A stretch of DNA of 43,788 nt from a virus. Taxonomy: Duplodnaviria; Caudoviricetes. Positions 6,566-22,301 of this stretch are shown piece after piece (the stretch's first letter is position 1; each line of letters opens with the position of its first letter). The notes under the pieces were generated by a model. That model was given only the letters and a program-made list of their open reading frames with translations, was not told where the DNA came from and searched no databases. A program made the translations under genes and the position numbers. The stretch covers positions 1-43,788 of the IMG/VR virus record IMGVR_UViG_3300020515_000010; one strand, given 5' to 3'.

Positions 6566-8114
6566 CTTAGAATCTATTGCCAAAATTGACAATTTAGACA
6601 AAATGGAAAAGGCAGCGAAGTCAGATGACTTTATGGTTGATGCCGAATTAGCAAAATCTTATGATGGACTAGATACCAACTTTAAACGAAGAGCATCAAG
6701 AAACCTAAACAAAGCCTTTATGGGGCAAGAAGATAGCAAATCAAAACAACTATTCCCAGAACAAGATTTAGTAACAGCATACGGACTATACGATGTTGTA
6801 ATCCCACCATACAACCTAGATGAACTAGCATACTTTTACGAAAACTCATTTGCTAACCATGCTGCAATCAATGCAAAAGTTTCAAACATTGTTGGCCTTG
6901 GTTATTCTTTTGAAGTAACAGACTCTACAATGGCTAGACTTGAAGACGCAGAATCTGAAGAATCATTAATGAGAGCACAAAGAAAGATTCAAAGATCTAA
7001 AGCCTCTATGGCTGAATGGCTAGAAAGTCTTAACGACGAAGATACCTTTACTCACATCTTAGAAAAAGTATATACAGACGTAGAAGCCCTAGGAAATGGA
7101 TACATTGAAATTGGTCGTAAAGTAAATGGAGAAATAGGATATGTTGGACATATTCCTGCTTCAACAATTCGTGTTCGTCGTTTACGTGATGGCTACATTC
7201 AAATAGTTAATCAAAGAGTTGTATTCTTTAGAAACTTTCAAGGCACAGAAGATCAAAACCCTGTAACCACAGATCCTAGACCAAACGAACTAATTCATAT
7301 CAAGAAGTATTCTCCAAAAACTTCTTACTATGGAATTCCAGACACAGTGGCAGCAGCAACCTCTATGGTTGGAGACAACTTAGCAGGTAAGTATAATATT
7401 GACTACTTTGAAAACAAGGCTGTTCCTAGATACATTGTGTCCTTAAAAGGTGCTAAGTTATCTGTTGACGCTGAAGATAAGTTGTTCAGATTCTTACAAT
7501 CAGGACTTCGTGGACAAAACCACAGAACTCTTTACATACCACTTCCTGGAGATAGCCCAGATAATAAAGTAGAATTTGATATGAAGGCTATTGAAAATGG
7601 AGTACAAGAAGGATCATTCGATAGATATCGCAAATCAAATCGTGACGATATTTTGATGGCTCACCAAGTACCATTTTCAAAAGTTGGTGGAGGTGCTGGA
7701 GTTTCAATAGCATCAGCCTTATCTTCTGATCGTACCTTCAAAGAACAAGTTGCTAGACCTGCTCAAAGAAACTTAGAAAAGGTTATTAACAAAATTGTTA
7801 AAGAAGAAACAGATATGCTACAATTTAAACTTAACGAACTAACTCTGACCGACGAAGTTACTCAAAGTCAGATTGACGAACGATACCTACGTATGCAGGT
7901 ATTAGTTCCGAACGAAGTTCGTGAAAGACTTGGGTATCCTGTTCGTCCAGGAGGCCAAGAACCAATTGTTCTAGGTTCACAAGCAAGGGCTGAGATAGCA
8001 GCACAAGCAAGTGGAAATAGAATGAGGGATCAACAAAGAACAAATAACGCAAGCGACTCTGAAGCCACAACCTCTGGCAGAAATGCACAGGGCGAGGGTA
8101 GAGCAAGTCAATAG
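6555..8114 (+). CDS. Portal protein (HK97/PBSX-like)
   Basis: LGNGYIEIGR, HIPASTIRV, ELIHIKKY...YYGIP, YFENKAVP, VPNEVRERLGYP; position before protease and capsid. Confidence 0.92.
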   Translation: MENNLESIAKIDNLDKMEKAAKSDDFMVDAELAKSYDGLDTNFKRRASRNLNKAFMGQEDSKSKQLFPEQDLVTAYGLYDVVIPPYNLDELAYFYENSFANHAAINAKVSNIVGLGYSFEVTDSTMARLEDAESEESLMRAQRKIQRSKASMAEWLESLNDEDTFTHILEKVYTDVEALGNGYIEIGRKVNGEIGYVGHIPASTIRVRRLRDGYIQIVNQRVVFFRNFQGTEDQNPVTTDPRPNELIHIKKYSPKTSYYGIPDTVAAATSMVGDNLAGKYNIDYFENKAVPRYIVSLKGAKLSVDAEDKLFRFLQSGLRGQNHRTLYIPLPGDSPDNKVEFDMKAIENGVQEGSFDRYRKSNRDDILMAHQVPFSKVGGGAGVSIASALSSDRTFKEQVARPAQRNLEKVINKIVKEETDMLQFKLNELTLTDEVTQSQIDERYLRMQVLVPNEVRERLGYPVRPGGQEPIVLGSQARAEIAAQASGNRMRDQQRTNNASDSEATTSGRNAQGEGRASQ

Positions 8115-8164
8115 TTGTTATAAACTCTTAATATCCTTAAAACACATTATATAATGGAACTAGT

Positions 8165-9523
8165 ATGACTAATATGCATAAAGCATTTTGGCACTCAGAA
8201 AAAGACAACATCACGTTGTCTATGCCAATTGCAAAAGTAGACAAAGAACGCAGAATGGTTTCGGGTTTTGCGACACTTGACAATGTCGACAAACAATCAG
8301 ATATAGTGCCTACAGACGTAAGCATTAAAGCGTTCGAAAGATTCCGTGGCAATTTAAGAGAAATGCACATGCCAATTGCAGTAGGCAAGGTTGTGTCATT
8401 TAAATCAGATAAGTTCTATAATAGAGACGAAGACAAATTTTACAATGGAGTATACGTAGATGCATACATTTCTAAAGGTGCTCAAGATACTTGGGAAAAA
8501 GTTCTTGATGGTACTCTTACTGGTTTTTCTATCGGGGGTAGTATTAATGATTCTGACAAAGCCTATAACTCCGACATGGATAAAGAGATTCGTGTTATTA
8601 AAGACTATGACCTCCACGAATTATCACTAGTTGATAATCCAGCAAATCAATTTGCAAACATAATTTCAATTCAAAAAGCCTCTAACGGAACAAATACAAT
8701 AGAAGGAATGGCCACAAAAACAGAATTTGAAAATGTTTACTGGTCAAAAGAAAATCAAATAATTAGACTTTCAAAAGAAGAAGATCCTCGTAATGATGAA
8801 ACATGGATTGGTTTTGTTGAATCAAACGACGTAGATAAGGCTTCTGTGATAAAAGATTTATTAAAATCACAGGACATAAGACTTGGTGAAACATCCAAGG
8901 CTGATCAAATTAATAAAGGAGGTAAGAACATGGCAAAAAAAGATAATGTAGAAGCAACAGAAGTTGTTGCAGAAACAAAAGTAGAAAAGTCTGTAGATAC
9001 AGAAGTTGAGACTGTCGTTGTAGACGAAATCGTGAAGTCTGATAGTCCAGAAGAAACACCTGCTGAAGAAGCACCAGTTGTTGAAGAAACACCTGCTGCT
9101 GAAGAAGCACCTGTTGTTGAAGAAGCAAAAGAAGTTTCTGAAGAAGTTGTTAAATCTGAAACTACAGAAGCCACTCCTGCACAAGAAGTTGCACAAATTG
9201 ATTTAGCAAAGGCTGTTGAAACAGTACAAGCCTCTGTTAATGAAGTTAGCAAATCCGTTGTGACAGCAGTTGAAGAATTAGCAGCAGCCGTTAAATCAAT
9301 TAACGAAAAAGTTGCTGAAATTACAAAAGGCATTGATTCAGTTAAAGGGGAAATTACTGAAGTAAAAAACAATGTTGAAGAGTTTGGAAAGCGTGTCGAT
9401 GCAGTAGAAGATGATACAGCGGTCCGTAAATCTGGCGACCTCGGCGGGGTCGTACAGCAAAAAATACAAAAAAGGTCGATGTGGGGCGGGCGTTTCCTCA
9501 ATTCCGCTGATCTATATCGTTAA
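8165..9523 (+). CDS. Prohead maturation protease fused to an acidic coiled-coil scaffold
   Basis: RMVSGFAT, LREMH, GTLTGFSIGG, ELSLVDNPAN; C-terminal E/A/V/P-rich and coiled-coil region. Confidence 0.88.
   Translation: MTNMHKAFWHSEKDNITLSMPIAKVDKERRMVSGFATLDNVDKQSDIVPTDVSIKAFERFRGNLREMHMPIAVGKVVSFKSDKFYNRDEDKFYNGVYVDAYISKGAQDTWEKVLDGTLTGFSIGGSINDSDKAYNSDMDKEIRVIKDYDLHELSLVDNPANQFANIISIQKASNGTNTIEGMATKTEFENVYWSKENQIIRLSKEEDPRNDETWIGFVESNDVDKASVIKDLLKSQDIRLGETSKADQINKGGKNMAKKDNVEATEVVAETKVEKSVDTEVETVVVDEIVKSDSPEETPAEEAPVVEETPAAEEAPVVEEAKEVSEEVVKSETTEATPAQEVAQIDLAKAVETVQASVNEVSKSVVTAVEELAAAVKSINEKVAEITKGIDSVKGEITEVKNNVEEFGKRVDAVEDDTAVRKSGDLGGVVQQKIQKRSMWGGRFLNSADLYR
8930..9523 (+). CDS. Nested in-frame scaffolding protein (internal start)
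   Basis: Strong SD AAAGGAGGT upstream of in-frame ATG 8930 (MAKKDNVEATE...) at the domain boundary. Confidence 0.7.
   Translation: MAKKDNVEATEVVAETKVEKSVDTEVETVVVDEIVKSDSPEETPAEEAPVVEETPAAEEAPVVEEAKEVSEEVVKSETTEATPAQEVAQIDLAKAVETVQASVNEVSKSVVTAVEELAAAVKSINEKVAEITKGIDSVKGEITEVKNNVEEFGKRVDAVEDDTAVRKSGDLGGVVQQKIQKRSMWGGRFLNSADLYR
9050..9128 (+). repeat. Short tandem duplication in the scaffold (EETPA(A)EEAPVV x2)
   Basis: gaagaaacacctgct...gaagaagcacc(a/t)gttgtt repeated. Confidence 0.8.
9481..9503 (+). repeat. Left arm of long-range inverted repeat (partner 13451-13470)
   Basis: GTGGGGCG-GGCG-TTTCCTCAATT is complementary to GATTGAGGAAA-T-CGCCCCAC. Confidence 0.8.
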
Positions 9524-9547
9524 CATTCACTGGGAGGTGAAAAAATT

Positions 9548-10531
9548 ATGTCAGAAGAAATTTTAAATAAGGCGGCTGTAACAGGAGTTATTGCTTCAGG
9601 AGGAATTGGCGGTGTTTCAACACCATCAAGCGAACTTGGACCAGTAGGAACAGCAAAACCAGCAGATGGTGGAGGTATCCTAAATCCAGAACAGTCACGC
9701 CAATTTATCGAATACATCTTTGAACAACAAGTTCTTGCTCGTGATGGTCGCCGTGTAACAATGCGTGGCAACACAGCAGAATTAGAAAAGATGAACGTTG
9801 GAGAACGTGTAATCCGTGCTGCTGCTCAAGCAGACGCAGCATACACAAATGCTGGAGTTACTTTTACAAAGGTCGAAATTACTACAAAGAAAGTTCGTCT
9901 TGATTGGGAAGTATCATCCGAAGCACTAGAAGATAATATCGAAGGTGCAGCATTAGAAGATCACTTAGTTCGTACAATGACTCGTGCATTTGCAAACGAT
10001 CTTGAAGATCTTGCAATCAACGGAACAGGTACAGGCTCAAATACATTCCTTAACATTTTGGAAGGTTTTGTTGCCAAAGAAAACAATGGTCACAGTGCTA
10101 CTTACGGAACAGATATTGAAGACTTACAAGCACTTGTGCTTGCAATGCCACGTAAATATCGTGCTTCTCGTTCAGCAATGAAGTTCTATGCCGATACTGA
10201 AACTGTTGCAGCAATTATCAACGGTCTTGGTTCAAGTGGTAACTTAAACACTGAAAGAATCGTAGAACGTGTTATCGATGGTGCAGCACCTCAAACAATT
10301 GGTGCTCCAATTCAATACCGTGTTCTTGGTCTTCCATTAGTTGAAGTTCCATTGATGCCAGCAGGATTCGTATCATTGACATTCCCAGAAAACCGTATTT
10401 GGGGATTCCAAAGAGACGTTACTGTTCATCGTGAATTCCAACCTAAGAAAGATACAGTAGAATATACTACTTTCTTACGTTTTGGTGTTCAAATCGAAGA
10501 AGAAGACGCAGTTGCTTACATGCAACAATAG
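9548..10531 (+). CDS. Major capsid protein (HK97 fold)
   Basis: GGILNPEQSRQFI, EALEDNIEG, ANDLEDLAING; SD GGAGGT; followed by a terminator. Confidence 0.92.
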   Translation: MSEEILNKAAVTGVIASGGIGGVSTPSSELGPVGTAKPADGGGILNPEQSRQFIEYIFEQQVLARDGRRVTMRGNTAELEKMNVGERVIRAAAQADAAYTNAGVTFTKVEITTKKVRLDWEVSSEALEDNIEGAALEDHLVRTMTRAFANDLEDLAINGTGTGSNTFLNILEGFVAKENNGHSATYGTDIEDLQALVLAMPRKYRASRSAMKFYADTETVAAIINGLGSSGNLNTERIVERVIDGAAPQTIGAPIQYRVLGLPLVEVPLMPAGFVSLTFPENRIWGFQRDVTVHREFQPKKDTVEYTTFLRFGVQIEEEDAVAYMQQ

Positions 10532-10549
10532 TTCTCTTTAGAACAACTC

Positions 10550-10590
10550 GAAGGGGGGACACGTAAAAATGTCCTCCCTTCAACTATTTT
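10550..10590 (+). terminator. Intrinsic terminator after the capsid gene
   Basis: Stem GAAGGGGGGACA / TGTCCTCCCTTC followed by aactatttt. Confidence 0.8.
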
Positions 10591-10595
10591 ATAAA

Positions 10596-10604
10596 TGATA
10601 TAAT
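10596..10604 (+). promoter_or_regulatory. Extended -10 promoter
   Basis: TGATATAAT immediately after the terminator. Confidence 0.65.
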
Positions 10605-10620
10605 AAACTTGGAGGATATT

Positions 10621-10806
10621 GTGTACGAATCTAATAATAAAATTGCTTTATATATAGAAAATGCAAGCGTTACTGATAAAGAATTAGGTAAATTAGTTCG
10701 TGGATATAATATCGTTTCAGAAGAAATTGCAAATCAATGGGTAGAGAAAAATAGTAAAGTTAGAATTGCTACCCCACAGGAGGTAGCAGCCGCTTACGGC
10801 TTATAA
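10621..10806 (+). CDS. Small hypothetical head-associated protein
   Basis: ORF track 10609-10806; GGAGG at 10611 favours GTG 10621. Confidence 0.65.
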   Translation: MYESNNKIALYIENASVTDKELGKLVRGYNIVSEEIANQWVEKNSKVRIATPQEVAAAYGL

Positions 10807-10808
10807 TT

Positions 10809-11681
10809 ATGGAAATATTAAGACATACAGATACAACTAGTTTAGTAGCATCTTTTCAAGTTTCATCAAGTGCAAGACACACATTAGAATATGACGACCT
10901 ATTAACAGGAGAGTCCTTCTCAGCCTCAGCAACACCACTATACGGCACTGTTTCCTTTACATTGAACAGCAAGTACCTAACCTATACAGGAAACCTTGTA
11001 GCGTCTGTTAAAAACGTTTCTGGAGATGTTGTAGCGTTAACCAACATAGACGTAGTAAGACCATACTGTAATACAGATAATATTGCATCAGCATTGAACA
11101 TTACCGACGGTAGTGAATTAGACTATGAAAGAATTACTAGATATATCATAGACTCACAAACACAAGGATTCTCATTTGTAAGAAAAGAAAAAGAAGTGGT
11201 AGGAAATGGATCTGACTACTTACCAGTAGATGAAAAGATATACAAAATTTATAAAGTTTATCAAAACGGACATTTAATATTTGATTCCACATCTGCAGTT
11301 AATGAAGTTTCTTTATTGATTAGTAAGGATGGAACATCTATAATCTCAGTAGATCCAGAAGTTCCAGAGAATAAGATTAATTATAAACAAGTTTGGAGAG
11401 AAAGATATCTAGACGCAGACTTTAATGAAGGCTCTGAATATGTGATAGATGGTGATTTTGGGTGGAAGGTAATTCCACAAGATGTACAAGAGGCTTCAGA
11501 ACTACTTATTCAAGATCTAAAGAATAATACTTTACAGTACGTAAACAGATATATTGAATCATTTGATAATGATGACTATAAGATTAAGTTTGCTAAAGGT
11601 GCTATATCAAATACAGGTAACGTAACAGTAGATAAGATCTTGGAGAAATACAGAAACAGAATCCGTCTCGGGGTGTTGTAA
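10809..11681 (+). CDS. Head-to-tail adaptor
   Basis: Synteny; GDFGWKVIPQDVQEASELL and TGNVTVDKILEKY adaptor-like C-terminus. Confidence 0.7.
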   Translation: MEILRHTDTTSLVASFQVSSSARHTLEYDDLLTGESFSASATPLYGTVSFTLNSKYLTYTGNLVASVKNVSGDVVALTNIDVVRPYCNTDNIASALNITDGSELDYERITRYIIDSQTQGFSFVRKEKEVVGNGSDYLPVDEKIYKIYKVYQNGHLIFDSTSAVNEVSLLISKDGTSIISVDPEVPENKINYKQVWRERYLDADFNEGSEYVIDGDFGWKVIPQDVQEASELLIQDLKNNTLQYVNRYIESFDNDDYKIKFAKGAISNTGNVTVDKILEKYRNRIRLGVL

Positions 11682-12152
11682 ATGCTTCCTAATGCAACAG
11701 GAGGACTTAACGACATTATGTTTCCAATGACTGCTGACGTATATTATGCAGAAACAAAACAACTAGATTATGGCAACGTGTCAAAGACTTGGGTATATGA
11801 TAGAACTGTAAAATGTTCAGTAATCACAGAACAGTCTGGTGACCTCATTGGTGAACTAAAGACAAAGGGAACAGACTTTGTATATGACTCAAGTAATTTT
11901 TTTAGAACACCAGAAGATTTAAGAAAGAAGTCTAATGGAAAGTATTATCCAATAACCTCTATATCTGTAACAAATATAAAAGATGCTTCAGGAACTGTTG
12001 TATGGATTAATGGATCAAACAAGCCTAACTCAGCAGAACCAGTTCCAACCAAGTATGAAATTAAGACTATAGTTCCAACATTTAATTATGACAACACTTT
12101 AAGATATCTAAGAGTATTTATAAGTAAGTCTCAGAATCAAAGGTGGGAATAA
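11682..12152 (+). CDS. Putative head closure/stopper protein
   Basis: Synteny; 156-aa beta-rich protein. Confidence 0.5.
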   Translation: MLPNATGGLNDIMFPMTADVYYAETKQLDYGNVSKTWVYDRTVKCSVITEQSGDLIGELKTKGTDFVYDSSNFFRTPEDLRKKSNGKYYPITSISVTNIKDASGTVVWINGSNKPNSAEPVPTKYEIKTIVPTFNYDNTLRYLRVFISKSQNQRWE

Positions 12153-12838
12153 TGAGAGTTAAATTAGATGCAACCGACCTTATGGCTACTTTAAAAAATA
12201 CAGTTCAATACTCGGATTCATTCTTAAAACAACTTAAAGCAAGCGAACCAAAACTAACACAAAAGATTGCCGATACTTCTATTGTTGCTTTCTATGAATA
12301 CATGGATGGAATTGCAAGATCTCATCCAGGAATGTTTCATCACGTTTATGAATGGGGTCAAGTAGGAGATCCATTTGGAAGACTGTTTGAATTAAATAGA
12401 ATCTTGGCTAGAAACAGTGCAAGAATAGATGCAGACTTTTTAGCATCTCAATCAACATCTCCAAACGGAACAGAACCATTTTACGATAAGGCTCAAATAA
12501 TGGAAGAAGGAAGCCCAGTTATTGTTAAAGAAAAAGATGCTTCAGTTCTATTCTTTGAAATAGAAGGAGAAGAGTTCTTTAGACATGGACCTATTTATAT
12601 AGCAAATCCTGGGGGTAGTGCAACAAGAGGATCTTTCCTTAATGCATATAATGAATTCTACCAATTTTACTTTACTAACTTTTATTTAAAGACTATAAGA
12701 TTTTATGAACACTTTGATACACCACAAGAATTTATTAGAAATTTCAAGTCAGCAGTTAAAAGTAAGACTGGTGCTGCTGCCGCAGGTCGCAAAATGGCTT
12801 TGTCATGGATTGAATCAGCCCCAGGAGATGTAGCATGA
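12152..12838 (+). CDS. Putative neck/tail completion protein
   Basis: Synteny; TAATG coupling gives start 12152. Confidence 0.45.
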   Translation: MRVKLDATDLMATLKNTVQYSDSFLKQLKASEPKLTQKIADTSIVAFYEYMDGIARSHPGMFHHVYEWGQVGDPFGRLFELNRILARNSARIDADFLASQSTSPNGTEPFYDKAQIMEEGSPVIVKEKDASVLFFEIEGEEFFRHGPIYIANPGGSATRGSFLNAYNEFYQFYFTNFYLKTIRFYEHFDTPQEFIRNFKSAVKSKTGAAAAGRKMALSWIESAPGDVA

Positions 12839-13434
12839 AAATTTACAGACCAGAAAATATAATTAATAGATATGTTTGGGAACAATTTAAAACCCAAGCA
12901 CCTTCTTTCTATAATCTTTATCCACCAACTGTTGGTGCCGATGACTTTATTCCATTCTTTCCAGCGGGTACAGGAAATATACCTCCTGAAATTATAGAGA
13001 ATGATTTACCTTACATAGTATTCGATAAATTCACTAAAGTTAGAACAGGTAAATACAAATATTTCTACCCTATTAAAAGTGAGCAAATGAGATATACCAT
13101 TTATGGTGGTTCTTTATATGGGGCTGCAACCAATGGTTCAGATCGATATGGGGTAACAATTAATCTTACTTCTTTAATTACCCTTGTATTAGATAGAGAA
13201 GATGTTGCAGCAAATGATATAAATGAATTTGCAGAAGAACTATATGATGACTATCCTGTTTCTGCAAGTCCTTCTGTATATGATTATTATAAATATAGGT
13301 TTCAATGTATAAATGTCTTCCAATCGGGGTATGCAGAAACTCAACAAGATGTATCTAACCTTATGGAGTATAAGCCTTCTAGGGACCTTATTATTAAATA
13401 TGATTATCATTCAAAACAGTATAATGAGTCATAA
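12835..13434 (+). CDS. Putative tail terminator protein
   Basis: Immediately upstream of the tail tube gene; LPYIVFD motif. Confidence 0.5.
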   Translation: MKIYRPENIINRYVWEQFKTQAPSFYNLYPPTVGADDFIPFFPAGTGNIPPEIIENDLPYIVFDKFTKVRTGKYKYFYPIKSEQMRYTIYGGSLYGAATNGSDRYGVTINLTSLITLVLDREDVAANDINEFAEELYDDYPVSASPSVYDYYKYRFQCINVFQSGYAETQQDVSNLMEYKPSRDLIIKYDYHSKQYNES

Positions 13435-13439
13435 AAGCA

Positions 13440-13503
13440 CGATATAATTAGATTGAGGAAATCGCCCCACTTTTCCTAAAAACAAGGAAGGTGAAAAAAA
13501 TAT
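13440..13503 (+). promoter_or_regulatory. Promoter and structured 5' leader of the tail tube gene; right arm of long-range inverted repeat
   Basis: TATAAT at 13443-13448; alternative stems AGGAAA/TTTCCT versus CAC-T-TTTCCT/AGGAAG-GTG covering the SD. Confidence 0.65.
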
Positions 13504-14181
13504 ATGGCAACATTAGGTAATAGCAATCAAATTATCGTAGGTGCAGCACAGGTATTCGTATCTACAGCAGGTGCTCTTGAATATGTACCAAATTCAGGAT
13601 CAGGATCTGCAGCAGTATACAACTTTGGTTCAGGTTCCGTAACAGGAATTCCAAATTTCGTATCTGGAACACGTTACGCAGATACACTTGAAGCAAATGC
13701 AAACTACAGAAACGTAGGCTACACAATGAATGGTTTGGAATTACAATTCCAACCAGACTTTGGTGAAGTTCAAGTAGATCAACTACTTGACGTAGCAAAA
13801 CTTTACAAGCAAGGTATGCAAGTTAACATGGTTACAGCATTCGCTGAAGCCACACTTGAAAATCTTCTTGTATCTATTGCAGGCAAAGATACAGAACTTT
13901 CAAATGGAGCAACACAAGACACTTTAGTTCTAAACTCAGGTGAACTTGGTGCAGTTCCAGTTGAACGTGCACTTATCGCAGTTGGTCCAGGTTCTGGAGA
14001 TCCAGAAGCAACAGGAGCAACAGCAGTAGAAAGAGTTTATGTAGCACACCGTGCATTGTCAATCGACAACGTAACAGTTTCTGCAAAGCGTGACGAACCT
14101 TCAATGTTTGAAGTTTCATTCCGCTTACTACCAACAGCAAATGGTTCATACGGTAAAATCGTAGACCGTGTAGTTGGCTAG
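13504..14181 (+). CDS. Major tail (tube) protein
   Basis: IIVGAAQVFV, NVGYTMNGLEL, VQVDQLLD, EATLENL, FEVSFRLLP; flanked by promoter and terminator. Confidence 0.85.
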   Translation: MATLGNSNQIIVGAAQVFVSTAGALEYVPNSGSGSAAVYNFGSGSVTGIPNFVSGTRYADTLEANANYRNVGYTMNGLELQFQPDFGEVQVDQLLDVAKLYKQGMQVNMVTAFAEATLENLLVSIAGKDTELSNGATQDTLVLNSGELGAVPVERALIAVGPGSGDPEATGATAVERVYVAHRALSIDNVTVSAKRDEPSMFEVSFRLLPTANGSYGKIVDRVVG

Positions 14182-14201
14182 TAACAACTTCATATACACT
14201 T

Positions 14202-14230
14202 AGCCCACTCCCTTCTGGGGGTGGGTTTTG
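14202..14230 (+). terminator. Intrinsic terminator after the tail tube gene
   Basis: AGCCCACTCCC-TTCT-GGGGGTGGGTT running into a T tract. Confidence 0.85.
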
Positions 14231-14239
14231 TGCTATAAT
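14231..14239 (+). promoter_or_regulatory. Extended -10 promoter for the chaperone/tape measure operon
   Basis: TGCTATAAT directly after the terminator; SD AGGAGG before 14264. Confidence 0.7.
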
Positions 14240-14263
14240 TTTAATATATCCATAGGAGGATAA

Positions 14264-14605
14264 ATGGCAACAAGTGTCTATGAAGTCGTAGAAATTGAAC
14301 TAATTGACGGTACAAAATTAACCCTAAGACCTTTAAGAATTTCTCTATTAAGAGATTTCATGAAAAAATTTCAAGGCTTAGATAATGTAGAAGTAGCATC
14401 TGATAATGATAAGTCAATGGATTTGTTAATGGATTGCATCACAATTGCAATGCAACAGTACAATCCTGAATTAGCAGATAAGAAAAAACTTGAAGATTTA
14501 GTAGATCTTCCAACAGTTTATAAAATTATTGAAATTGCCTCGGGGGTTAAACTTAACGACCCAAATTTACTAGCAGCAACGGCGGCTCTAAGTGGTCAGA
14601 ACTAG
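14264..14605 (+). CDS. Tail assembly chaperone (gpG-like)
   Basis: 113 aa, between tail tube and tape measure. Confidence 0.8.
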   Translation: MATSVYEVVEIELIDGTKLTLRPLRISLLRDFMKKFQGLDNVEVASDNDKSMDLLMDCITIAMQQYNPELADKKKLEDLVDLPTVYKIIEIASGVKLNDPNLLAATAALSGQN

Positions 14606-14937
14606 ACCTCGTTGCTATAGAATCTGAGGTATTTCTTCTTGGTAATTGGAAAGATTACCAGGAATTGGAGGACAGATTATCGATGCCTGAACTAGTGGCC
14701 ATTCTCGAAGCAAAGAGAGAACAAGACCATATTAACAGGAAGTTTTCAGCAGCACTACAAGGTGTTGACATCGATAAGAATAAAGTCTCTGGTGATGAAT
14801 GGGAACGTCTCAAGGCTAAAGTATATAGTAAAGGTCAAACAACTAATCCAAGAGATATTGTTGCCTTACAAGGACAAGCCGCTAAGCGTGCTGGTTTTGG
14901 TATAGGTAATGGTTTGGATTACGAGGTGATTCAATAG
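14264..14937 (+). CDS. Tail assembly chaperone, -1 frameshift product (gpGT-like, about 224 aa)
   Basis: Slippery C CCA AAT and A AAT TTA at 14560-14569; -1 frame open from 14557 to 14937 (GGSKWSELDLVAIESEVFLLGNWKDYQELEDRLSMPEL...). Confidence 0.8.
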
Positions 14938-17900
14938 TGGTTGATGCACAGGCCAATATTAGAGTCAATCTCGATGCTGCTCAAGCCCTTGCAGAATTAA
15001 AAGCCTTAGAAAAACAAATACAATTTTTTAACAAAAGCATTATTCAAGGATCCTCTGAAGCATCTAGGATTCAAAAAGAATTTTCTACTAGTTTAATTCA
15101 TAACATAAATGCTACAGGTAAATTTACTGCCTCAATGGGCAAGGTACATACAGAAACTGAAAGATTTACTAACGCTCTTGAAAAAAATAAACTATCTGCT
15201 AGAGAATACTTTAGATATTCTATGGCTTCCACAAAATCATTTGGAAAACTCTTTGGTAAAGAATTTGGAACTATTACTAAGGTAGCAGAAGAAAGAGTAA
15301 AATTATTACAAACTAGACATATTGAATTAGGTCGTGCCGCTGATGGTGCTATGAGAGCAGTTAAAATTGTTCCTAACTCTCTTGATTATTCAAAACCTAT
15401 TACCCAAATGCAACTTGCTATTCAAAAACAACAAATTTTTAATAAACTTTTAGACGCTGGAACAACAAAACTTTTAAACTTTGGTAAGAATACCCAATGG
15501 GCTGGACGTCAGTTGATGGTTGGTTTTACCATTCCTCTTACTATTCTTGGTTCTACAGCCATTAGAACTTTTAGAGACATGGAAATGCAGGCTATTAGGT
15601 TTAAAAAAGTATACGGAGATATCTTTACATCTACAGTAGAAACAGATGCTGCTTTAGAAAGTATTAAAAAACTAGCAAACGAATACACAAAATATGGAGT
15701 TGCTATTACAGATACTATTAAAATGGCTGCAGATGCAGCAGCAGCAGGTAACTCTGGAGCACAGTTAGAAAGCGTTGTTGCTCAAGCAACCAAACTTTCA
15801 GTACTTGGTGGGGTAGCACAAGATCAAGCATTAGAGGCAACAATTGCAATTCAAAACGCATTTGGTGCAACTGGAAAAGAACTAGACAAGACAATTAACT
15901 TTTTAAACGCAGTTGAAAACCAAACAGTAGTAGCACTTGATGATATTACTCAGGCTATTCCAAAGGTTGCTCCTGTAATTCAATCACTTGGTGGAGATAT
16001 TAAAGACTTAGCATTTTTTATGGCCGCAATGCAAGAAGGTGGAGTAAAAGCATCAGAAGCAGCAAACGCTTTAAAATCTGGTCTTGCATCTTTAATTAAT
16101 CCATCAAAAGCAGCAAATGAACAGGCTAAAGCATTAGGAATTAATTTAAATGGAATAGTTGAACAAAATGCAGGAGATCTAAAAGCAACAGTTATGACTT
16201 TTGCTACAGCACTAGAGCCACTTGATGAGTTGTCAAAATCAAGATTAATTGAAACAATTTTTGGTAAGTATCAATTTGCAAGATTATCTACTCTTTTTGA
16301 AAACGTAAATAAAAGTGGAACTCAAGCATCTAGAGTTTTATCTTTGGCTGCAGCCTCAACGGAAGAATTAGGAATTATGGCAGAACGAGAATTAGGTGTT
16401 ACAGCAGAATCTGCAGCAGTAAAGTTTCAGGCTGCTATAGAAAAATTAAAAGCATCTTTGGTTCCTGTTGGTCAAGCATTTGCAGAAGCATTAACACCTA
16501 TTATAGAATTTGCAACTAAAGCCTTAAATAAGTTTAACAATTTTTCAGACGGTACTAAAAAAGCAATAGTTGCAGTTATAGCAGCAATTGGTGGTATTGG
16601 GCCAGTACTTTTGATGTCTATTGGTTTGATTGCTAACGGTATTGCTAATATTGGTAAGTTTATTAATTTACTTCGTAAAGGATATCAATCATTAACAGTA
16701 GGTGGTGGTGAATTAGGTTTATCAACACAGTATTTAAGTTCTGAACAATTAGAAGCATTGTCTGTAGCAAATAATTTACATAATGCTCACGAAATGTTAA
16801 CTGATCAATTTGCATTAGAGGCAGGTGCTTTAATGAGGTTGACTAGTGTTTATAAGCAAGCAAATCAAGCAGCATCTTCATTTGCACAAACTAATCCACA
16901 ATTTTTTGCAGCAGGAGCCGCAAGTAAAATAAAAAATCCTAAATTTGGAAAACCTATGGCTAAAGGTGGTTGGGTTCCAGGATCAGGAAATAAAGATACA
17001 GTTCCTACAACATTGATGCCTGGAGAATTTGTTGTAACTAAAAAAGCAGCACAGGCTAATTCACAAACTCTTGAAGCAATGAATAAAGGTGGTCAAACCT
17101 ATAGGTCTTCTGGTACTCCTGGATTTGGAAAGATGGCTTACAGAGGTGGAGGCTCACTACCTCAATCTGATTCTGTATCCTTAGTTGGACATCTTCAAAC
17201 TTCTGGATTACACTTAAGGCAGGGTACTAAAAAAGATAATGGTGCTTATAGATATTCTGGATATACAATGTTTGGAAATCATTCTTTTAATCAATTAACA
17301 CAAAATCGTGCAGCAGATATTAGACCACTTATGGGTGGAGCAAATGTAGAAGGCTATCCATTGTTTAGAAAAGAAGCACAAGACATTGCAGATTTAATCA
17401 AAACTAAACCTGATTTAACTATAAATGAAAAAGTAGCCTTAAAAGTTTTGCAAGCAGAATTAAAACAATTTCCAACTAATGGTGCTTGGCAAGGTGAAAT
17501 GGGAAGACGATATGCACTTAATGCTTTGGCTGCAGAAGGGTTAGATCCTAATTCACCACAAGGTAAAAATGTATTAAATGAAATGCAAAAATCATTTAAG
17601 AATGCCTCTTCTGGTTCTAAAAATTCTGATCAATTAACAAGTAGATTGTATTCTAATGCTGATGAACTATGGGCAAAAGGTATTTTGGGCGATAAAGGTA
17701 TGAGATCAAAAGTAAAAAAAGGCTCGCCTCATAAAGAATATAGAAAAATGCCTATTGTTCAATTACTTCGTATGTTAAATGATCCAAACTTAGTAAGAGC
17801 ACAAGGAGGTTTTGGTTTAACTGTTCCTAAATTTTTAGATCCTAAATATGATAATGCAGGAAATCTTGTTAGTGTAATGGGTATGCCAATGACAAAACAA

Positions 17901-20900
17901 ACTGCTGGAGTAACAACTACTAAACCTAGTGTTGGTGCAAGGGCAAAAAGTTTTTCACAAAGACCTTCGGCAAAGTTTGGAGCACTTGCTGCTCTTGGTA
18001 CTGCTGTTGCAGGAACTGCTGCTCAAGCAGTACAAAATCGTCAATCAGGTACTCCTTCATATGGAGAACAAGGTGTAACTCCAGCAATGTTAACTCCTGG
18101 AGAGTTTGTTGTTAATTCAAAATCTGCACAAAAATTTGGACCACAATTACAGGCTATGAATAAAGGTGGCATGGCTTACAGAGCAGAGCCAAGTGGACCA
18201 GGGTATGATTTTAAAGTTACAGATAAAAGATCTTCTCAAAACATTAATACTATTCCATCACAATCAACTGTTGCTAGATCTTCAATGAAACAATCTTTGG
18301 GTTCTGCAACTAGCACAATAAGTAGTGCTGGTAAAAAAATTGTTGAAAAATTAATTACAACAATGGGAAAAAATACATTAGTAGTTGATAAAAATACAGA
18401 AAGTTTAGATGATGCAACAAAGCAATCAAATAAAATTCAAAAGAGTCAAAGACTTGGTAGGGCTGCAAGTGGAATTGGTATGGGTGGATTTGCAATAAGT
18501 GGTGCTGCGATGGCAGTAGGAATGACTTCTAAAGATCCAAGAACTCAACAGTTAGCAAATAATGTGTCTATGGCTGCAGGAACAATTGGAAGTTTAGCAA
18601 TGGCCGCACCAATGCTTGCAAATCCTTTAGTCTTAGCAGCAACTGCAGCAGTTGGATTGCCAACAGCATTATACCTAATGAAAAAATCAATAGACAATGC
18701 AAGAGTTAAAGGATATGAATTTGCAACATCTATGAGTAACACTTCAGATGATTTAAAAGCAATGGGAGAGATGACTGGAAACGTTTCCGCTTCAGAAGTT
18801 GCAACTAGACAAAGAGAGTCAAGAACTTCCCCAATAAATCCATTACGAAGTGATTTTGGTGATACATTTATAACATCAGATTTAGGTAAACAATTATTAA
18901 ATCAAACAAGTCAATTAACTAAAGATAATATGGGTCCAGGAAGTGGAAAAATAATTGGTGCAAAACTTGCTGACTATGTTGTAGAAGGGTTGATAGATCC
19001 AGCACAAGCACAAAGCATAGCACAAGCAATAGGCACTTCTTTGGGTAGCCAAGATATATCTATGAGTATTAATGGTAAGTTAGAAGAACTTATTGGTATA
19101 AATGGAAATGACCTATATAAAGATCCATTAGAAGTAAGAATTAGACTTATTGAAGAATCAAAATCACAAAGTCAAGATTTTGCAAATACAATTCAAACAC
19201 AATTATCTAAAATTGATTCAAATAAAATATGGACAGATAGTGGATTTTATGATTTTTCTGGAATAGGAAAAAGTTTTTTTGAATCTTGGAAAACTGGAAC
19301 AGTTGATGTTGCTAAACTAGGAGATCTTATATTTGGTACAAATACATTTAAAGATAAAGGATTTGCAAAAATAGCAGGACAACAAGTTGGTTATAATGAA
19401 TCTGCATTAGAAACTTCTAGAAAAGCATTAGATACATATGAAGTTCAAGTTCAAACAAAAAGACAAGAATTTATAGAGCAAGAAAAAGTATTAAGAAATG
19501 CTATTCAAAATACAACTAATTCAGAAGAGCAAACAAAACTACAAAATAAATTAAACGATCTTTTGCTTTATAGAAATAATCTTGAAAATGATTATGTTGC
19601 TGGTAGAAAAGAGATAACTGATCAGCAAAAACAAACATTAGATTTTGTTATGAAAACTTTTACTACTAATAAACAAATACAAGATCAGATGTTAAAGGGT
19701 AGTAGCGAAGCGGTATCTATTAAATATAAAGATACACCTCTTGCTGGAATAGCATCTGCATTTACAACTCAAACAGAAGGGTTTAAAAATAAAGAAGTTA
19801 CTTTCTTAATTAATACACAAGTTTCATCTGGAAATATTGGGCTAGAACAGGCTATGTCTTTGATGAGCGTTATGACTGGAAAAGATGGAAAACTTAGTGA
19901 AGAAGGAATTCAAAAACAAATTACTTTATATGCAGAAGCCAAGGGTATCGGGGTAGAAGGATTAGATAGAATACTAGTTGCTACTAGAGAAGTTCAAGAT
20001 AGAGTTGAAAGAGGAGAAACAATAAATCTATTTAGAGATTTAGATCCAACAAAATTTGCTCAGGCTACTTCATTCTTAGAAACAGCAACTAATTTAAGTG
20101 ATAAAGATGTAAATATGGATGCAGTTATTGATACTGTAAGTATAGATGATATGGTATCTGCTAGCGAAGATATTGCTAAAATGAATAAAGAACTTCCAGA
20201 TAAAATAACTAAAGAAGCATTAATTAAATTTTCTGAAACAGATTCAGATTTTGTGGGCATTCAACAGAACGTTGATTGGTTTGATAGTTTGCCAGACGAG
20301 CAAACAAAGTATTCAATTCAAATTTATAGAACAATCCTTGAAACTATTGATGCAGATAAAATGAGAACTAGATTAGAAAATCAAAAGAAAGCATCCGCAT
20401 CGTCTTCACTTAATCCAGGAATGAGTACTACAGTTACTGATGAAGAAGTTGTAAGAGCATCAGCGGATGAGGCCGTTAGACTAACTAAAAAATATTTTGG
20501 ACCAGGGTCATTGTATGCATCAGTAATAGGAGAAGATGGAGAGGCTGGTGGAGGTGGTGGAGGAATCGTACCAATACAAACAGCACAGTTAATAGAATTA
20601 AGAATGAAAGGGCTAGATCCAGCAGCAGCAGGAAGTCTAGATTTTGCTTCAGCAGGAAAAATATTAACTGGAACAGTTAAACAACAAAGACAAGCAATTT
20701 CTGAATTAAATGCTTCCTTAAGAGAGGCATCTATTCAAGCAGAACTATTAAAGACTGATGAAGAAATGTTACAAGATACTATGACTTCTGCAACTAATGC
20801 TATAGGTGCATACATAGATATGCTTGAACAAACAAGAATTAATCCAATTCAAGATCAAATAGATCAATATAATGAACTCTCTAATGCTCAACAAAAACAA

Positions 20901-22301
20901 ATAGACCTTTATAGTAAAGGGTTGCAACAACTATCTGATAAAGAAGATAACATTAATAAGATTTATGATGAAAGAATTTCTGCTATTGATAAAGTAACTC
21001 AAGCAAATGATAGAGCGGCACAAAGACAACAACGACAAATTGATTTGGCTTCAGCAATTGCTTCTGGTGATTTTGGTGCAGCCGCAAGTGCAGCAGCAGA
21101 GATTACTAACGCAGAGGCTCAAGCACAATTAGAAGATACTAGGGCAGCACTTGAACAACAACAACAAGCAGAACTTGCTGCTTTGACGGTAGAAATTAAT
21201 GGTCAACTATATACTCGTGAACAAATTGAAACTAATATTAAGTCTCTTGAAGAGTCAATATATCAAACTACTTTATTGGTTAGAGCAGAACAAGAAAAAA
21301 TTGTTAATATTGAAAAGACTATTACTGCTGAGAAAGAAAAACAACGTAAACTTCAAGTGTTAACACAGATGAGTCAGATTGCTACTCAGATGCAAACAAC
21401 TGTAAATCAGTCAGCACGTCAAGCAATGGGTGCACAACTTGGATATCTTGGTCAGTCAATAGGTTTAGATCCAAATAGTCCTGAGTCTGTTGCTGCAATG
21501 AGTCAATCATTAGGAATAAATGTTCAAGCCCTTTCTGATTCTATTTTAAAATCTCAACAAATTGCTACATTAACAGCAACAGAGTTTGCACTAGAAGCAG
21601 AAAAAGCAAAAAAGAAAGCAGGAGATTTATCAAGATTTTATGGAGAAGCAAGCGTAGAAGGAAAGAATTCATTAGGATTCTTAACAAACTTAAGTGCAGC
21701 ATGGGCTGGAGATTCAAAGAAAAGTGGATTGGGTGGTATGGTTTCTACAGGCAGAGACATACTTACAAGTTTATCTCAGTCAGCAGACGCAATTAGAATT
21801 GGAAAAGTTCAAATACAAAATGCAGTAGATAGTGCTTTAGCATCAATAAGATCAGCAAGAAGACCTTACGCTTTTGGTGGAAACGTAAAAAGAATGGCAA
21901 TGGGTGGAAATGTAAATTATAAAGGATCTACTGAACCAGCACCAGTAAGGATGGCAATTGGAAACCTTGTTCCAGGATTAGGAAATACAGATAGGGTTCC
22001 AGCATTATTAACACCAGGAGAATTTGTTGTTCGTAAATCTGTTGCAAAAGAAAACTTAGGATTACTACAAGCAATGAATGGGGACGTTTTTCCAGGAATG
22101 AAAGGTGGCATAGGTGCAAACACAATCATGGCACCAATTACAAATACAGTTATGGAAGGAAGCACAACACTGTATAATAATAGTTATAGCGTTAATGTAA
22201 ATGTTGCAGGAACAAACTCTTCAGCAGATGAAGTTGCAAATGTTGTAATTAGAAAGATTAAGGGTATGAACGACAGAGGAATAAGAGGTAGTAGATACTA
22301 A
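14937..22301 (+). CDS. Tape measure protein with inserted domain
   Basis: 2454 aa, Ala/Gln-rich helical; TP901-like core (MQEGGVKASEAANALKSGL); hydrophobic segments; three PGEFVV motifs. Confidence 0.92.
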   Translation: MVDAQANIRVNLDAAQALAELKALEKQIQFFNKSIIQGSSEASRIQKEFSTSLIHNINATGKFTASMGKVHTETERFTNALEKNKLSAREYFRYSMASTKSFGKLFGKEFGTITKVAEERVKLLQTRHIELGRAADGAMRAVKIVPNSLDYSKPITQMQLAIQKQQIFNKLLDAGTTKLLNFGKNTQWAGRQLMVGFTIPLTILGSTAIRTFRDMEMQAIRFKKVYGDIFTSTVETDAALESIKKLANEYTKYGVAITDTIKMAADAAAAGNSGAQLESVVAQATKLSVLGGVAQDQALEATIAIQNAFGATGKELDKTINFLNAVENQTVVALDDITQAIPKVAPVIQSLGGDIKDLAFFMAAMQEGGVKASEAANALKSGLASLINPSKAANEQAKALGINLNGIVEQNAGDLKATVMTFATALEPLDELSKSRLIETIFGKYQFARLSTLFENVNKSGTQASRVLSLAAASTEELGIMAERELGVTAESAAVKFQAAIEKLKASLVPVGQAFAEALTPIIEFATKALNKFNNFSDGTKKAIVAVIAAIGGIGPVLLMSIGLIANGIANIGKFINLLRKGYQSLTVGGGELGLSTQYLSSEQLEALSVANNLHNAHEMLTDQFALEAGALMRLTSVYKQANQAASSFAQTNPQFFAAGAASKIKNPKFGKPMAKGGWVPGSGNKDTVPTTLMPGEFVVTKKAAQANSQTLEAMNKGGQTYRSSGTPGFGKMAYRGGGSLPQSDSVSLVGHLQTSGLHLRQGTKKDNGAYRYSGYTMFGNHSFNQLTQNRAADIRPLMGGANVEGYPLFRKEAQDIADLIKTKPDLTINEKVALKVLQAELKQFPTNGAWQGEMGRRYALNALAAEGLDPNSPQGKNVLNEMQKSFKNASSGSKNSDQLTSRLYSNADELWAKGILGDKGMRSKVKKGSPHKEYRKMPIVQLLRMLNDPNLVRAQGGFGLTVPKFLDPKYDNAGNLVSVMGMPMTKQTAGVTTTKPSVGARAKSFSQRPSAKFGALAALGTAVAGTAAQAVQNRQSGTPSYGEQGVTPAMLTPGEFVVNSKSAQKFGPQLQAMNKGGMAYRAEPSGPGYDFKVTDKRSSQNINTIPSQSTVARSSMKQSLGSATSTISSAGKKIVEKLITTMGKNTLVVDKNTESLDDATKQSNKIQKSQRLGRAASGIGMGGFAISGAAMAVGMTSKDPRTQQLANNVSMAAGTIGSLAMAAPMLANPLVLAATAAVGLPTALYLMKKSIDNARVKGYEFATSMSNTSDDLKAMGEMTGNVSASEVATRQRESRTSPINPLRSDFGDTFITSDLGKQLLNQTSQLTKDNMGPGSGKIIGAKLADYVVEGLIDPAQAQSIAQAIGTSLGSQDISMSINGKLEELIGINGNDLYKDPLEVRIRLIEESKSQSQDFANTIQTQLSKIDSNKIWTDSGFYDFSGIGKSFFESWKTGTVDVAKLGDLIFGTNTFKDKGFAKIAGQQVGYNESALETSRKALDTYEVQVQTKRQEFIEQEKVLRNAIQNTTNSEEQTKLQNKLNDLLLYRNNLENDYVAGRKEITDQQKQTLDFVMKTFTTNKQIQDQMLKGSSEAVSIKYKDTPLAGIASAFTTQTEGFKNKEVTFLINTQVSSGNIGLEQAMSLMSVMTGKDGKLSEEGIQKQITLYAEAKGIGVEGLDRILVATREVQDRVERGETINLFRDLDPTKFAQATSFLETATNLSDKDVNMDAVIDTVSIDDMVSASEDIAKMNKELPDKITKEALIKFSETDSDFVGIQQNVDWFDSLPDEQTKYSIQIYRTILETIDADKMRTRLENQKKASASSSLNPGMSTTVTDEEVVRASADEAVRLTKKYFGPGSLYASVIGEDGEAGGGGGGIVPIQTAQLIELRMKGLDPAAAGSLDFASAGKILTGTVKQQRQAISELNASLREASIQAELLKTDEEMLQDTMTSATNAIGAYIDMLEQTRINPIQDQIDQYNELSNAQQKQIDLYSKGLQQLSDKEDNINKIYDERISAIDKVTQANDRAAQRQQRQIDLASAIASGDFGAAASAAAEITNAEAQAQLEDTRAALEQQQQAELAALTVEINGQLYTREQIETNIKSLEESIYQTTLLVRAEQEKIVNIEKTITAEKEKQRKLQVLTQMSQIATQMQTTVNQSARQAMGAQLGYLGQSIGLDPNSPESVAAMSQSLGINVQALSDSILKSQQIATLTATEFALEAEKAKKKAGDLSRFYGEASVEGKNSLGFLTNLSAAWAGDSKKSGLGGMVSTGRDILTSLSQSADAIRIGKVQIQNAVDSALASIRSARRPYAFGGNVKRMAMGGNVNYKGSTEPAPVRMAIGNLVPGLGNTDRVPALLTPGEFVVRKSVAKENLGLLQAMNGDVFPGMKGGIGANTIMAPITNTVMEGSTTLYNNSYSVNVNVAGTNSSADEVANVVIRKIKGMNDRGIRGSRY

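Follow-up and report, generated by a model that had tools for sequence, protein, structure and literature searches.

Among the described systems closest to the element reported here, the hly and prsA2 mRNAs of Listeria monocytogenes pair in trans at a 5′ end, with the donor site lying in a 3′ untranslated region (PMC8722363). The same article also cites RoxS and yflS of Bacillus subtilis, where pairing at the extreme 5′ end blocks RNase J1, and irvA and gbpC of Streptococcus mutans, where the partner paired through its coding region is the protected one; as described there, neither pair involves phage genes. In IS10, as outlined in PMC4737173, a loop of RNA-OUT initiates pairing on the 5′ tail of RNA-IN, and this dedicated antisense RNA forms a duplex that blocks the ribosome-binding site. 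Here we describe two complementary sequences, termed the left and right arms, located upstream of the major capsid gene and of the major tail-tube gene in the tailed-phage sequence IMGVR_UViG_3300020515_000010 (43,788 nucleotides, hereafter the window). Their conserved complementarity at the RNA level is likely to represent a new form of trans control between mRNAs.

The phage element resembles the hly-prsA2 pair in its extended complementarity between two protein-coding transcripts and in the predicted position of the target site. It differs in that the donor site is in the middle of a transcript, at the end of the scaffold open reading frame (ORF) or in the gap before the capsid gene, and in that the partners are phage virion genes whose arms covary over capsids that are 31-100% identical. 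Assignment of the phage pair to the hly-prsA2 type would call for a measured effect. Initiation by a loop on a 5′ tail is likewise predicted for the phage pair, in common with IS10. Two features of IS10 are absent, namely an antisense RNA encoded opposite its target and a duplex over the ribosome-binding site. RNA-OUT is cis-encoded, whereas the phage partners are both sense mRNAs from loci 3-7 kb apart, and their imperfect pairing ends well before the Shine-Dalgarno sequence.

An earlier note on this DNA knew of no comparable described system. This is too broad, given the pairing at a 5′ end in Listeria, but it holds for phage virion genes, for which no case was found. Our literature search, which covered subscription journals thinly, returned no description of phage head-tail mRNA pairing, and supplementary tables of interactomes or motif screens might hold one. 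Passages of a recent preprint (bioRxiv 10.64898/2026.06.19.733364) deal with host RNAs.

Complementary arms upstream of the capsid and tail-tube genes

The arms are found where the earlier note had placed them, at positions 9481-9503 and 13451-13470, both on the sense strand and 3.9 kb apart. Together they form two runs of 8 and 12 base pairs flanking a 3-nucleotide bulge, including two G-U pairs, with a predicted energy of −30.5 kcal/mol. Other details given in that note also proved correct: the arms end 44 nucleotides 5′ of the capsid start and 33 nucleotides 5′ of the tube start, and the ribosome-binding regions of both genes carry GGTGAAAAAA. Not mentioned in that account is the coding character of the left arm, which falls within the protease/scaffold ORF (8165-9523), in codons for the peptide MWGGRFLN. 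If the tube transcript starts 6 nucleotides after the TATAAT box at 13443-13448, the four pairs at 13451-13454 fall outside it and 16 pairs remain. The 22 nucleotides from 13454 onward pair with the left arm at −29.2 kcal/mol.

Comparison with shuffled sequences, which the note had proposed as a check, favours the helix. None of 300 shuffled tube leaders reaches −32.4 (mean −14.9, best −25.7), and only two of 5000 synonymous recodings of the left arm reach −31.8. The full arm motif was found at none of the other promoters of the window. A second potential partner in the tape-measure gene, near position 17141 (−31.5), was rejected; it requires bases 5′ of the predicted transcription start, with the energy falling to −21.4 when these are left out, and has no counterpart at a constant position in relatives. 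A scan of positions 8000-15000 against Rfam 15 gave no match at the gathering score and two sub-threshold matches (E 2.7 and 3.8), both away from the arms, and the same scan of three related loci (L081, L240 and L205) gave none.

Conservation and covariation of the arms

Related loci were collected from IMG/VR with the window capsid, the window tube protein and the capsid of the cultured phage LukeCage (best 80 for each), and ten cultured-phage regions were added. Both genes are present in 165 of the resulting 248 sequences. After removal of 11 whose sequence upstream of the capsid gene was truncated or of insufficient length, 154 loci were kept, corresponding to 110 distinct pairs of upstream regions. 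Selection was for capsid and tube genes reading on the same strand, and many of the loci are closely related, so the counts that follow do not represent independent events.

The complementarity between the arms is real and conserved. Over the 110 distinct loci and the full range of capsid identity, the two arms change together, which answers the question of conservation raised in the earlier note. Cultured phages with the arm pair include LukeCage, Circinus, Coruscant, Annadreamy, Muntaha, Comrade, Trina, NiceHouse and Francesca. When the arms are aligned by the Trp codon on the left and, on the right, by the first AGGA that follows a −10-like hexamer, 24 distinct core pairs are obtained. The six inner columns of the core are paired in 23 or 24 of these, whereas outer columns 1 and 10 are paired in just 13 and 15. 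Column 9 is C-G in 21 core pairs and A-U in three, with both sides switching in the clade of locus L036. Column 3 is U-A in 17, C-G in four, A-U in two and unpaired in one; column 2 is G-C in 13, A-U, C-G and G-U in three each, and unpaired in two. Columns 2 and 3 thus each show three types of Watson-Crick pair, as the codon shifts from Arg to His or Ser. In L181, L188, L202, Trina, Francesca and NiceHouse, the letters of the arms are wholly different yet still complementary. These divergent forms fall on separate branches of the capsid tree, and by our count about twelve different sequence solutions keep the helix.

Exchange of arms between lineages weakens the pairing. Among 14 lineages, duplexes with the lineage's own partner average −25.7 compared to −14.9 for swapped partners, a difference equalled in none of 100000 permutations. 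The own partner is the best in only 8 of the 14 rows of the swap matrix because close lineages cross-pair, and in five distant loci the duplex itself served to place the windows. With one locus per capsid cluster at <80% identity, pairing is seen in 138 of the 150 core cells (permutation p 0.0007).

Two loci deserve description. In L220, a gap of 95 nucleotides separates the scaffold stop from the capsid start and, by eye, the arms seem to be kept at the scaffold end with several G-U pairs; this poorly ranking pair is possibly a decaying copy. L243 (Rhodococcus phage Weasels2) combines related head genes with another tail module and lacks a clear arm pair; judging from this example, the element may track the tube family.

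Specificity of partner choice

When 22 nucleotides from the predicted tube start are used as query, the best partner lies 40-135 nucleotides 5′ of the capsid start for 63 of 67 distinct queries (median 1436 windows compared), and the remaining four rank 2, 3, 3 and 5. In the opposite direction, the tile from the tube leader comes first in 23 of 31 loci and has at most two better tiles in 28; L126, L140 and L220 fail. Outgroups with capsids of 24-35% identity and other tails (Ares1, Summit, Clo-PEP-1, RcKickapoo, 0105phi7-2 and Weasels2) gave no first rank in nine leader tests, three of which had 1-3 better tiles of 90. For the neck and chaperone transcripts, no conserved partner of the predicted 5′ ends was seen among 22 loci. 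A separate count, in which 68 of 110 loci have no better window, favours the leader by design and is not relied on.

Evidence for a probable RNA duplex

The left arm is inside the scaffold ORF in 106 of the 110 loci, and the W codon that opens it lies 62-76 nucleotides 5′ of the capsid start in 104 of these 106. Since it encodes a conserved W-G-G-R/H/S-F-L sequence and most right cores are purine-rich, the complementarity could in principle be a by-product, with a peptide motif and a Shine-Dalgarno-like stretch matching by accident. However, the synonymous positions are nearly fixed and switch together with the partner. Phe codons of the core are TTC in 101 of 102 cases, compared to 33% TTC in the rest of the ORF and 77% in the capsid gene. 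Leu codons are CTC in 91 and CTA in 10 of 104, whereas CTC makes up 10% (30% together with CTA) elsewhere in the ORF and 9% in the capsid gene. The peptide does not account for the left arm, because the arm is wholly intergenic in NiceHouse, where the right arm is also not Shine-Dalgarno-like, and straddles the stop codon in Trina and Francesca. The swap and rank tests speak against an accidental match as well, and with covariation largely refuting it, this reading is scarcely tenable.

Other roles for the left arm were considered and rejected. Duplex-stimulated frameshifting or read-through that would join scaffold to capsid is at odds with a stop-to-start gap that occurs in all three frames (53, 23 and 30 of 106), and no conserved slippery heptamer is seen by eye upstream. 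An antisense promoter at this site lacks a conserved −10 box, also as judged by eye.

The earlier note had offered another alternative, in which the arms are inverted DNA sites for a phage protein or for inversion of the segment between them. Concerted change in two copies of a binding site can imitate covariation, and an ungapped count anchored on Watson-Crick pairs, in which several loci are wrongly anchored, found more A-C than G-U columns (69 versus 52). Rigid, near-identical inverted repeats are not what is seen, however, since bulges and internal loops shift between lineages, and the sequence has been replaced outright in Rhodococcus phages. The absence of the full motif from other promoters of the window is a further difficulty for a protein-binding site. 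Inversion would interrupt the scaffold gene and turn the capsid gene around, whereas the gene order is unchanged in all 154 kept loci, which were selected for genes on the same strand. The sense strand has 46 internal G-U pairs and the antisense strand 21, and the sense duplex is the stronger one in 58 of 76 cases, which is modest strand evidence for RNA over DNA sites. DNA sites therefore fit the data poorly and are very improbable. We conclude from the comparative data that the RNA duplex is very probably real.

Probable pairing between separate transcripts

In 66 of 88 distinct leaders, the core of the right arm begins 6-7 nucleotides after the −10 hexamer, which is the usual place of the first transcribed base. 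One base before the core, Watson-Crick pairing is seen in 63 of the 88 leaders, and it drops to 24-35 at the next four positions upstream. A strong hairpin follows the capsid stop codon in 69 of 70 relatives and the tube stop codon in 67 of 70, the three misses being cut contigs, and these hairpins are mostly trailed by a new −10 box. The core at the spacing of a transcription start, the fading of the pairing upstream and the hairpins together suggest that the tube gene is probably transcribed on its own, into a short mRNA that begins with the right arm.

A helix could instead form inside one long read-through late transcript, with the capsid and neck genes looped out. The arms are on the same strand and in the same order, some pairing reaches at least one base upstream of the predicted start, and the hairpin that the earlier note had located between the arms (10550-10581) is present but has a weak U tract in the window. 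A single transcript is hard to reconcile with the near-universal hairpin 3′ of the capsid gene, with a −10 box at fixed spacing before an arm whose pairing fades upstream, and with a match that survives distances between the arms of 3.0-7.4 kb. We regard read-through as improbable. Because strong hairpins close both genes, the pairing is probably between two mRNAs. The earlier note proposed base pairing between a capsid mRNA and a tube mRNA that are distinct. Covariation, specificity, the edge of the helix at the predicted start and the conserved terminator-like hairpins lend this proposal good support, and a location of the duplex between separate transcripts seems likely.

Predicted folding of the arms and ribosome-binding sites

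Folding predictions indicate that the core of the left arm is likely displayed in a hairpin loop. In 47 of 70 relatives, most of the core is unpaired and has paired strands on both flanks. The 7-base-pair stem named for this hairpin is 90.5% paired in 33 sequences, compared to 32-49% when it is slid out of register. The left-arm region is more stable than its synonymous recodings in 56 of 60 loci, significantly so in 14, although the window's own hairpin is not unusual relative to shuffled sequences (z −1.08). After the cost of unfolding both sides is counted, 98 of 101 loci retain a net binding energy under −5 kcal/mol, with a mean of −12.0 versus −5.1 in shuffled controls.

The duplex stops 24-63 nucleotides 5′ of the tube start and never covers the tube Shine-Dalgarno sequence. 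It is predicted to open the tube ribosome site by >1 kcal in 35 of 69 loci, and the mean opening of 0.92 kcal compared to 0.36 kcal for shuffled arms (p 0.02) is a slight excess. For the capsid ribosome site, five gains and 12 losses among the 69 loci indicate no opening. These figures led us to reject the left arm as a general capsid anti-Shine-Dalgarno sequence freed by the tube leader, although a few lineages (L116 and L205) do fold in this manner. A small hairpin over the capsid Shine-Dalgarno sequence (9526-9541 in the window) occurs in the clade of the window and is absent from the L036 clade.

A candidate mechanism and its alternatives

The constant feature of the duplex is that it begins at the predicted first base of the tube mRNA. 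In B. subtilis, RppH requires unpaired 5′ bases, as reported in PMC3997798, and Mycobacterium tuberculosis possesses both RNase E and RNase J according to PMC7509114. These three points favour protection of the tube mRNA. In the mechanism we propose, the 5′ end of the tube mRNA would bind the predicted hairpin loop in the capsid mRNA, and the 5′ strand of the hairpin is predicted to unzip on binding. The duplex would then shield the tube mRNA from decay that depends on its 5′ end; protection from pyrophosphate removal and from RNase J or RNase E is proposed by analogy. In about half of the lineages, folding suggests that it may also modestly help to open the tube ribosome site. By the same analogy, tube output would follow the level of capsid mRNA, a positive coupling from head to tail. 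That the capsid message stabilises or activates the tube mRNA in this way is our best explanation, with roughly even chances of being correct.

Several observations weigh against it. A cluster cut at 70% capsid identity leaves five units (p 0.05), the counts come from related loci and are hence non-independent, and L220 shows a weak match only. Changes in the 7-base-pair stem are mostly one-sided between G-C and G-U, with two-sided change in one of seven pairs, and RNAalifold gave no consensus for the loop hairpin. The shuffled-leader control also falls below −5 kcal/mol in 80 of 180 cases. In 13 of 69 loci, the tube ribosome site is predicted to close by >1 kcal, and in the window it changes little. 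Because the left arm is almost always within the scaffold ORF, translating ribosomes should strip the duplex, and protection could last only if translation pauses or the capsid mRNA is processed.

If processing yielded a capsid-only mRNA, ribosome stripping would cease to be an obstacle, and this leads to a reading in which the duplex acts mainly on the head message. As an RNase III site or a block to a 5′ exonuclease, the helix would yield a stable capsid-only mRNA and less protease and scaffold. The duplex consists of two helices around a bulge or internal loop, of about 17-22 base pairs, and the opening W codon keeps its narrow range of distances from the capsid start. A capsid-only fragment would be free of scaffold ribosomes. 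RNase III is described as cutting IS10 duplexes (PMC4737173), and the protection pattern cited for irvA-gbpC (PMC8722363) fits this reading and not protection of the tube mRNA. On the other hand, the capsid ribosome site is not opened in folding, and in L220 and L188 the arm follows the scaffold end and not a fixed distance from the capsid start. The uninterrupted core, moreover, often spans 8-10 base pairs only, which is short for RNase III. Action mainly on the head message is thus a rather unlikely alternative, if the foremost one. Somewhat more doubtful is a combined scheme in which one helix would shield two 5′ ends at once, the primary one of the tube mRNA and one created by processing of the capsid mRNA. 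Such a one-to-one RNA pair would be a protein-free counting device that fixes the ratio of heads to tails.

The opposite sign of control is conceivable, with a repressive duplex as in IS10 through which the capsid mRNA lowers tube translation or triggers decay of the tube message, thereby capping or delaying tails. The geometry of a loop and an unstructured 5′ tail fits the RNA-OUT/RNA-IN model, and the loci in which the tube site closes point in the same direction. Against this, the tube site opens more often than it closes and the duplex ends short of the Shine-Dalgarno sequence, so we judge repression to be improbable, though marginally less so than read-through. That the pairing may balance head and tail output, as the earlier note proposed, is plausible.

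Genome setting

The window is part of an AT-rich, siphovirus-like genome in which the genes for portal, protease/scaffold, HK97-type capsid, neck, tail tube, chaperones and tape measure are followed by replication genes. Among cultured phages, those closest to it are Stanwilliamsviridae of Streptomyces, with a capsid ~40% identical, and phages of Rhodococcus, Trina among them; these relatives suggest an actinobacterial host. A host search in GTDB genomes gave no match, and no tRNA genes were found. Features around the arms are listed in Table 1.

Table 1. Features of the window at and near the two arms.
Feature	Position	Strand	Basis
−10 box TATAAT, predicted start of the protease-scaffold-capsid mRNA	8150-8155	+	Consensus match only
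Head maturation protease ORF with C-terminal scaffold region; last codons hold the left arm	8165-9523	+	PHROG 9427, E 7e-115; translation
Probable nested in-frame scaffold gene (strong Shine-Dalgarno and ATG; 197 amino acids, acidic)	8930-9523	+	Inferred
Predicted hairpin showing the arm core in loop 9491-9502	9477-9519	+	Minimum free energy fold
Left arm, capsid-mRNA side; core 9493-9500	9481-9503	+	Sequence, duplex fold, covariation; synonymous codons nearly fixed
Capsid Shine-Dalgarno	9533-9539	+	Sequence
HK97-type major capsid protein	9548-10531	+	PF05065 homologs; ~40% identity to annotated Streptomyces phage capsids
Terminator-like hairpin 3′ of the capsid gene, then −10 box 10599-10604	10550-10581	+	Fold; kept in relatives
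Tail-tube promoter −10 box TATAAT	13443-13448	+	Sequence
Right arm, predicted first 16 nucleotides of the tube mRNA	13455-13470	+	Duplex fold, −10 spacing, partner rank
Weak leader hairpin over the tube Shine-Dalgarno, 3-nucleotide overlap with the right arm; not general in relatives	13468-13493	+	Fold, z 0.01
Major tail (tube) protein	13504-14181	+	40-48% identity to Streptomyces phage proteins, mostly annotated major tail protein; gene order
Terminator hairpin 3′ of the tube gene, then −10 box 14234-14239	14203-14231	+	Fold; kept in relatives

An internal Shine-Dalgarno sequence and ATG within the protease ORF, as for the nested scaffold gene of the window, are found in 63 of 84 complete relatives. 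The protease start codon is only 9 nucleotides 3′ of its −10 box (8150-8165), and the protease mRNA would thus be almost leaderless. Ahead of the tail-chaperone stop codon, a CCCAAAT heptamer in the right phase (14560-14566) precedes a −1 frame into the ORF at 14665-14937 that is open and conserved in many relatives. This is an ordinary chaperone frameshift; several Streptomyces phage records annotate two separate genes. Repeated segments that are 70-85% alike are present in the tape-measure gene (16974-17084, 18080-18113 and 21969-22079), and the tail-spike gene holds three repeats with a period of 135 nucleotides (29906-30351). A 38-nucleotide inverted repeat (138-223) is located in an AT-rich stretch 5′ of the ribonucleotide reductase gene.

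Implications for phage assembly

The heads and tails of tailed phages assemble separately, and the matching of their output is usually credited to the strength of promoters and ribosome-binding sites. If the proposed mechanism is true, the element would be a direct link between the head and tail pathways through the two most abundant virion mRNAs, and it would be among the few mRNA-mRNA controls known in bacteria or their viruses. The pairing is testable now because it is present in cultured phages, and the naturally different arm pairs offer ready swap controls. Changes to the codons at the scaffold end, or relocation of the tube gene, could inadvertently break the pairing in these phages. 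If the scheme that protects both 5′ ends is true, a one-to-one pair of capsid and tube RNAs would have persisted across a range that extends from freshwater phages to those infecting Streptomyces and Rhodococcus.

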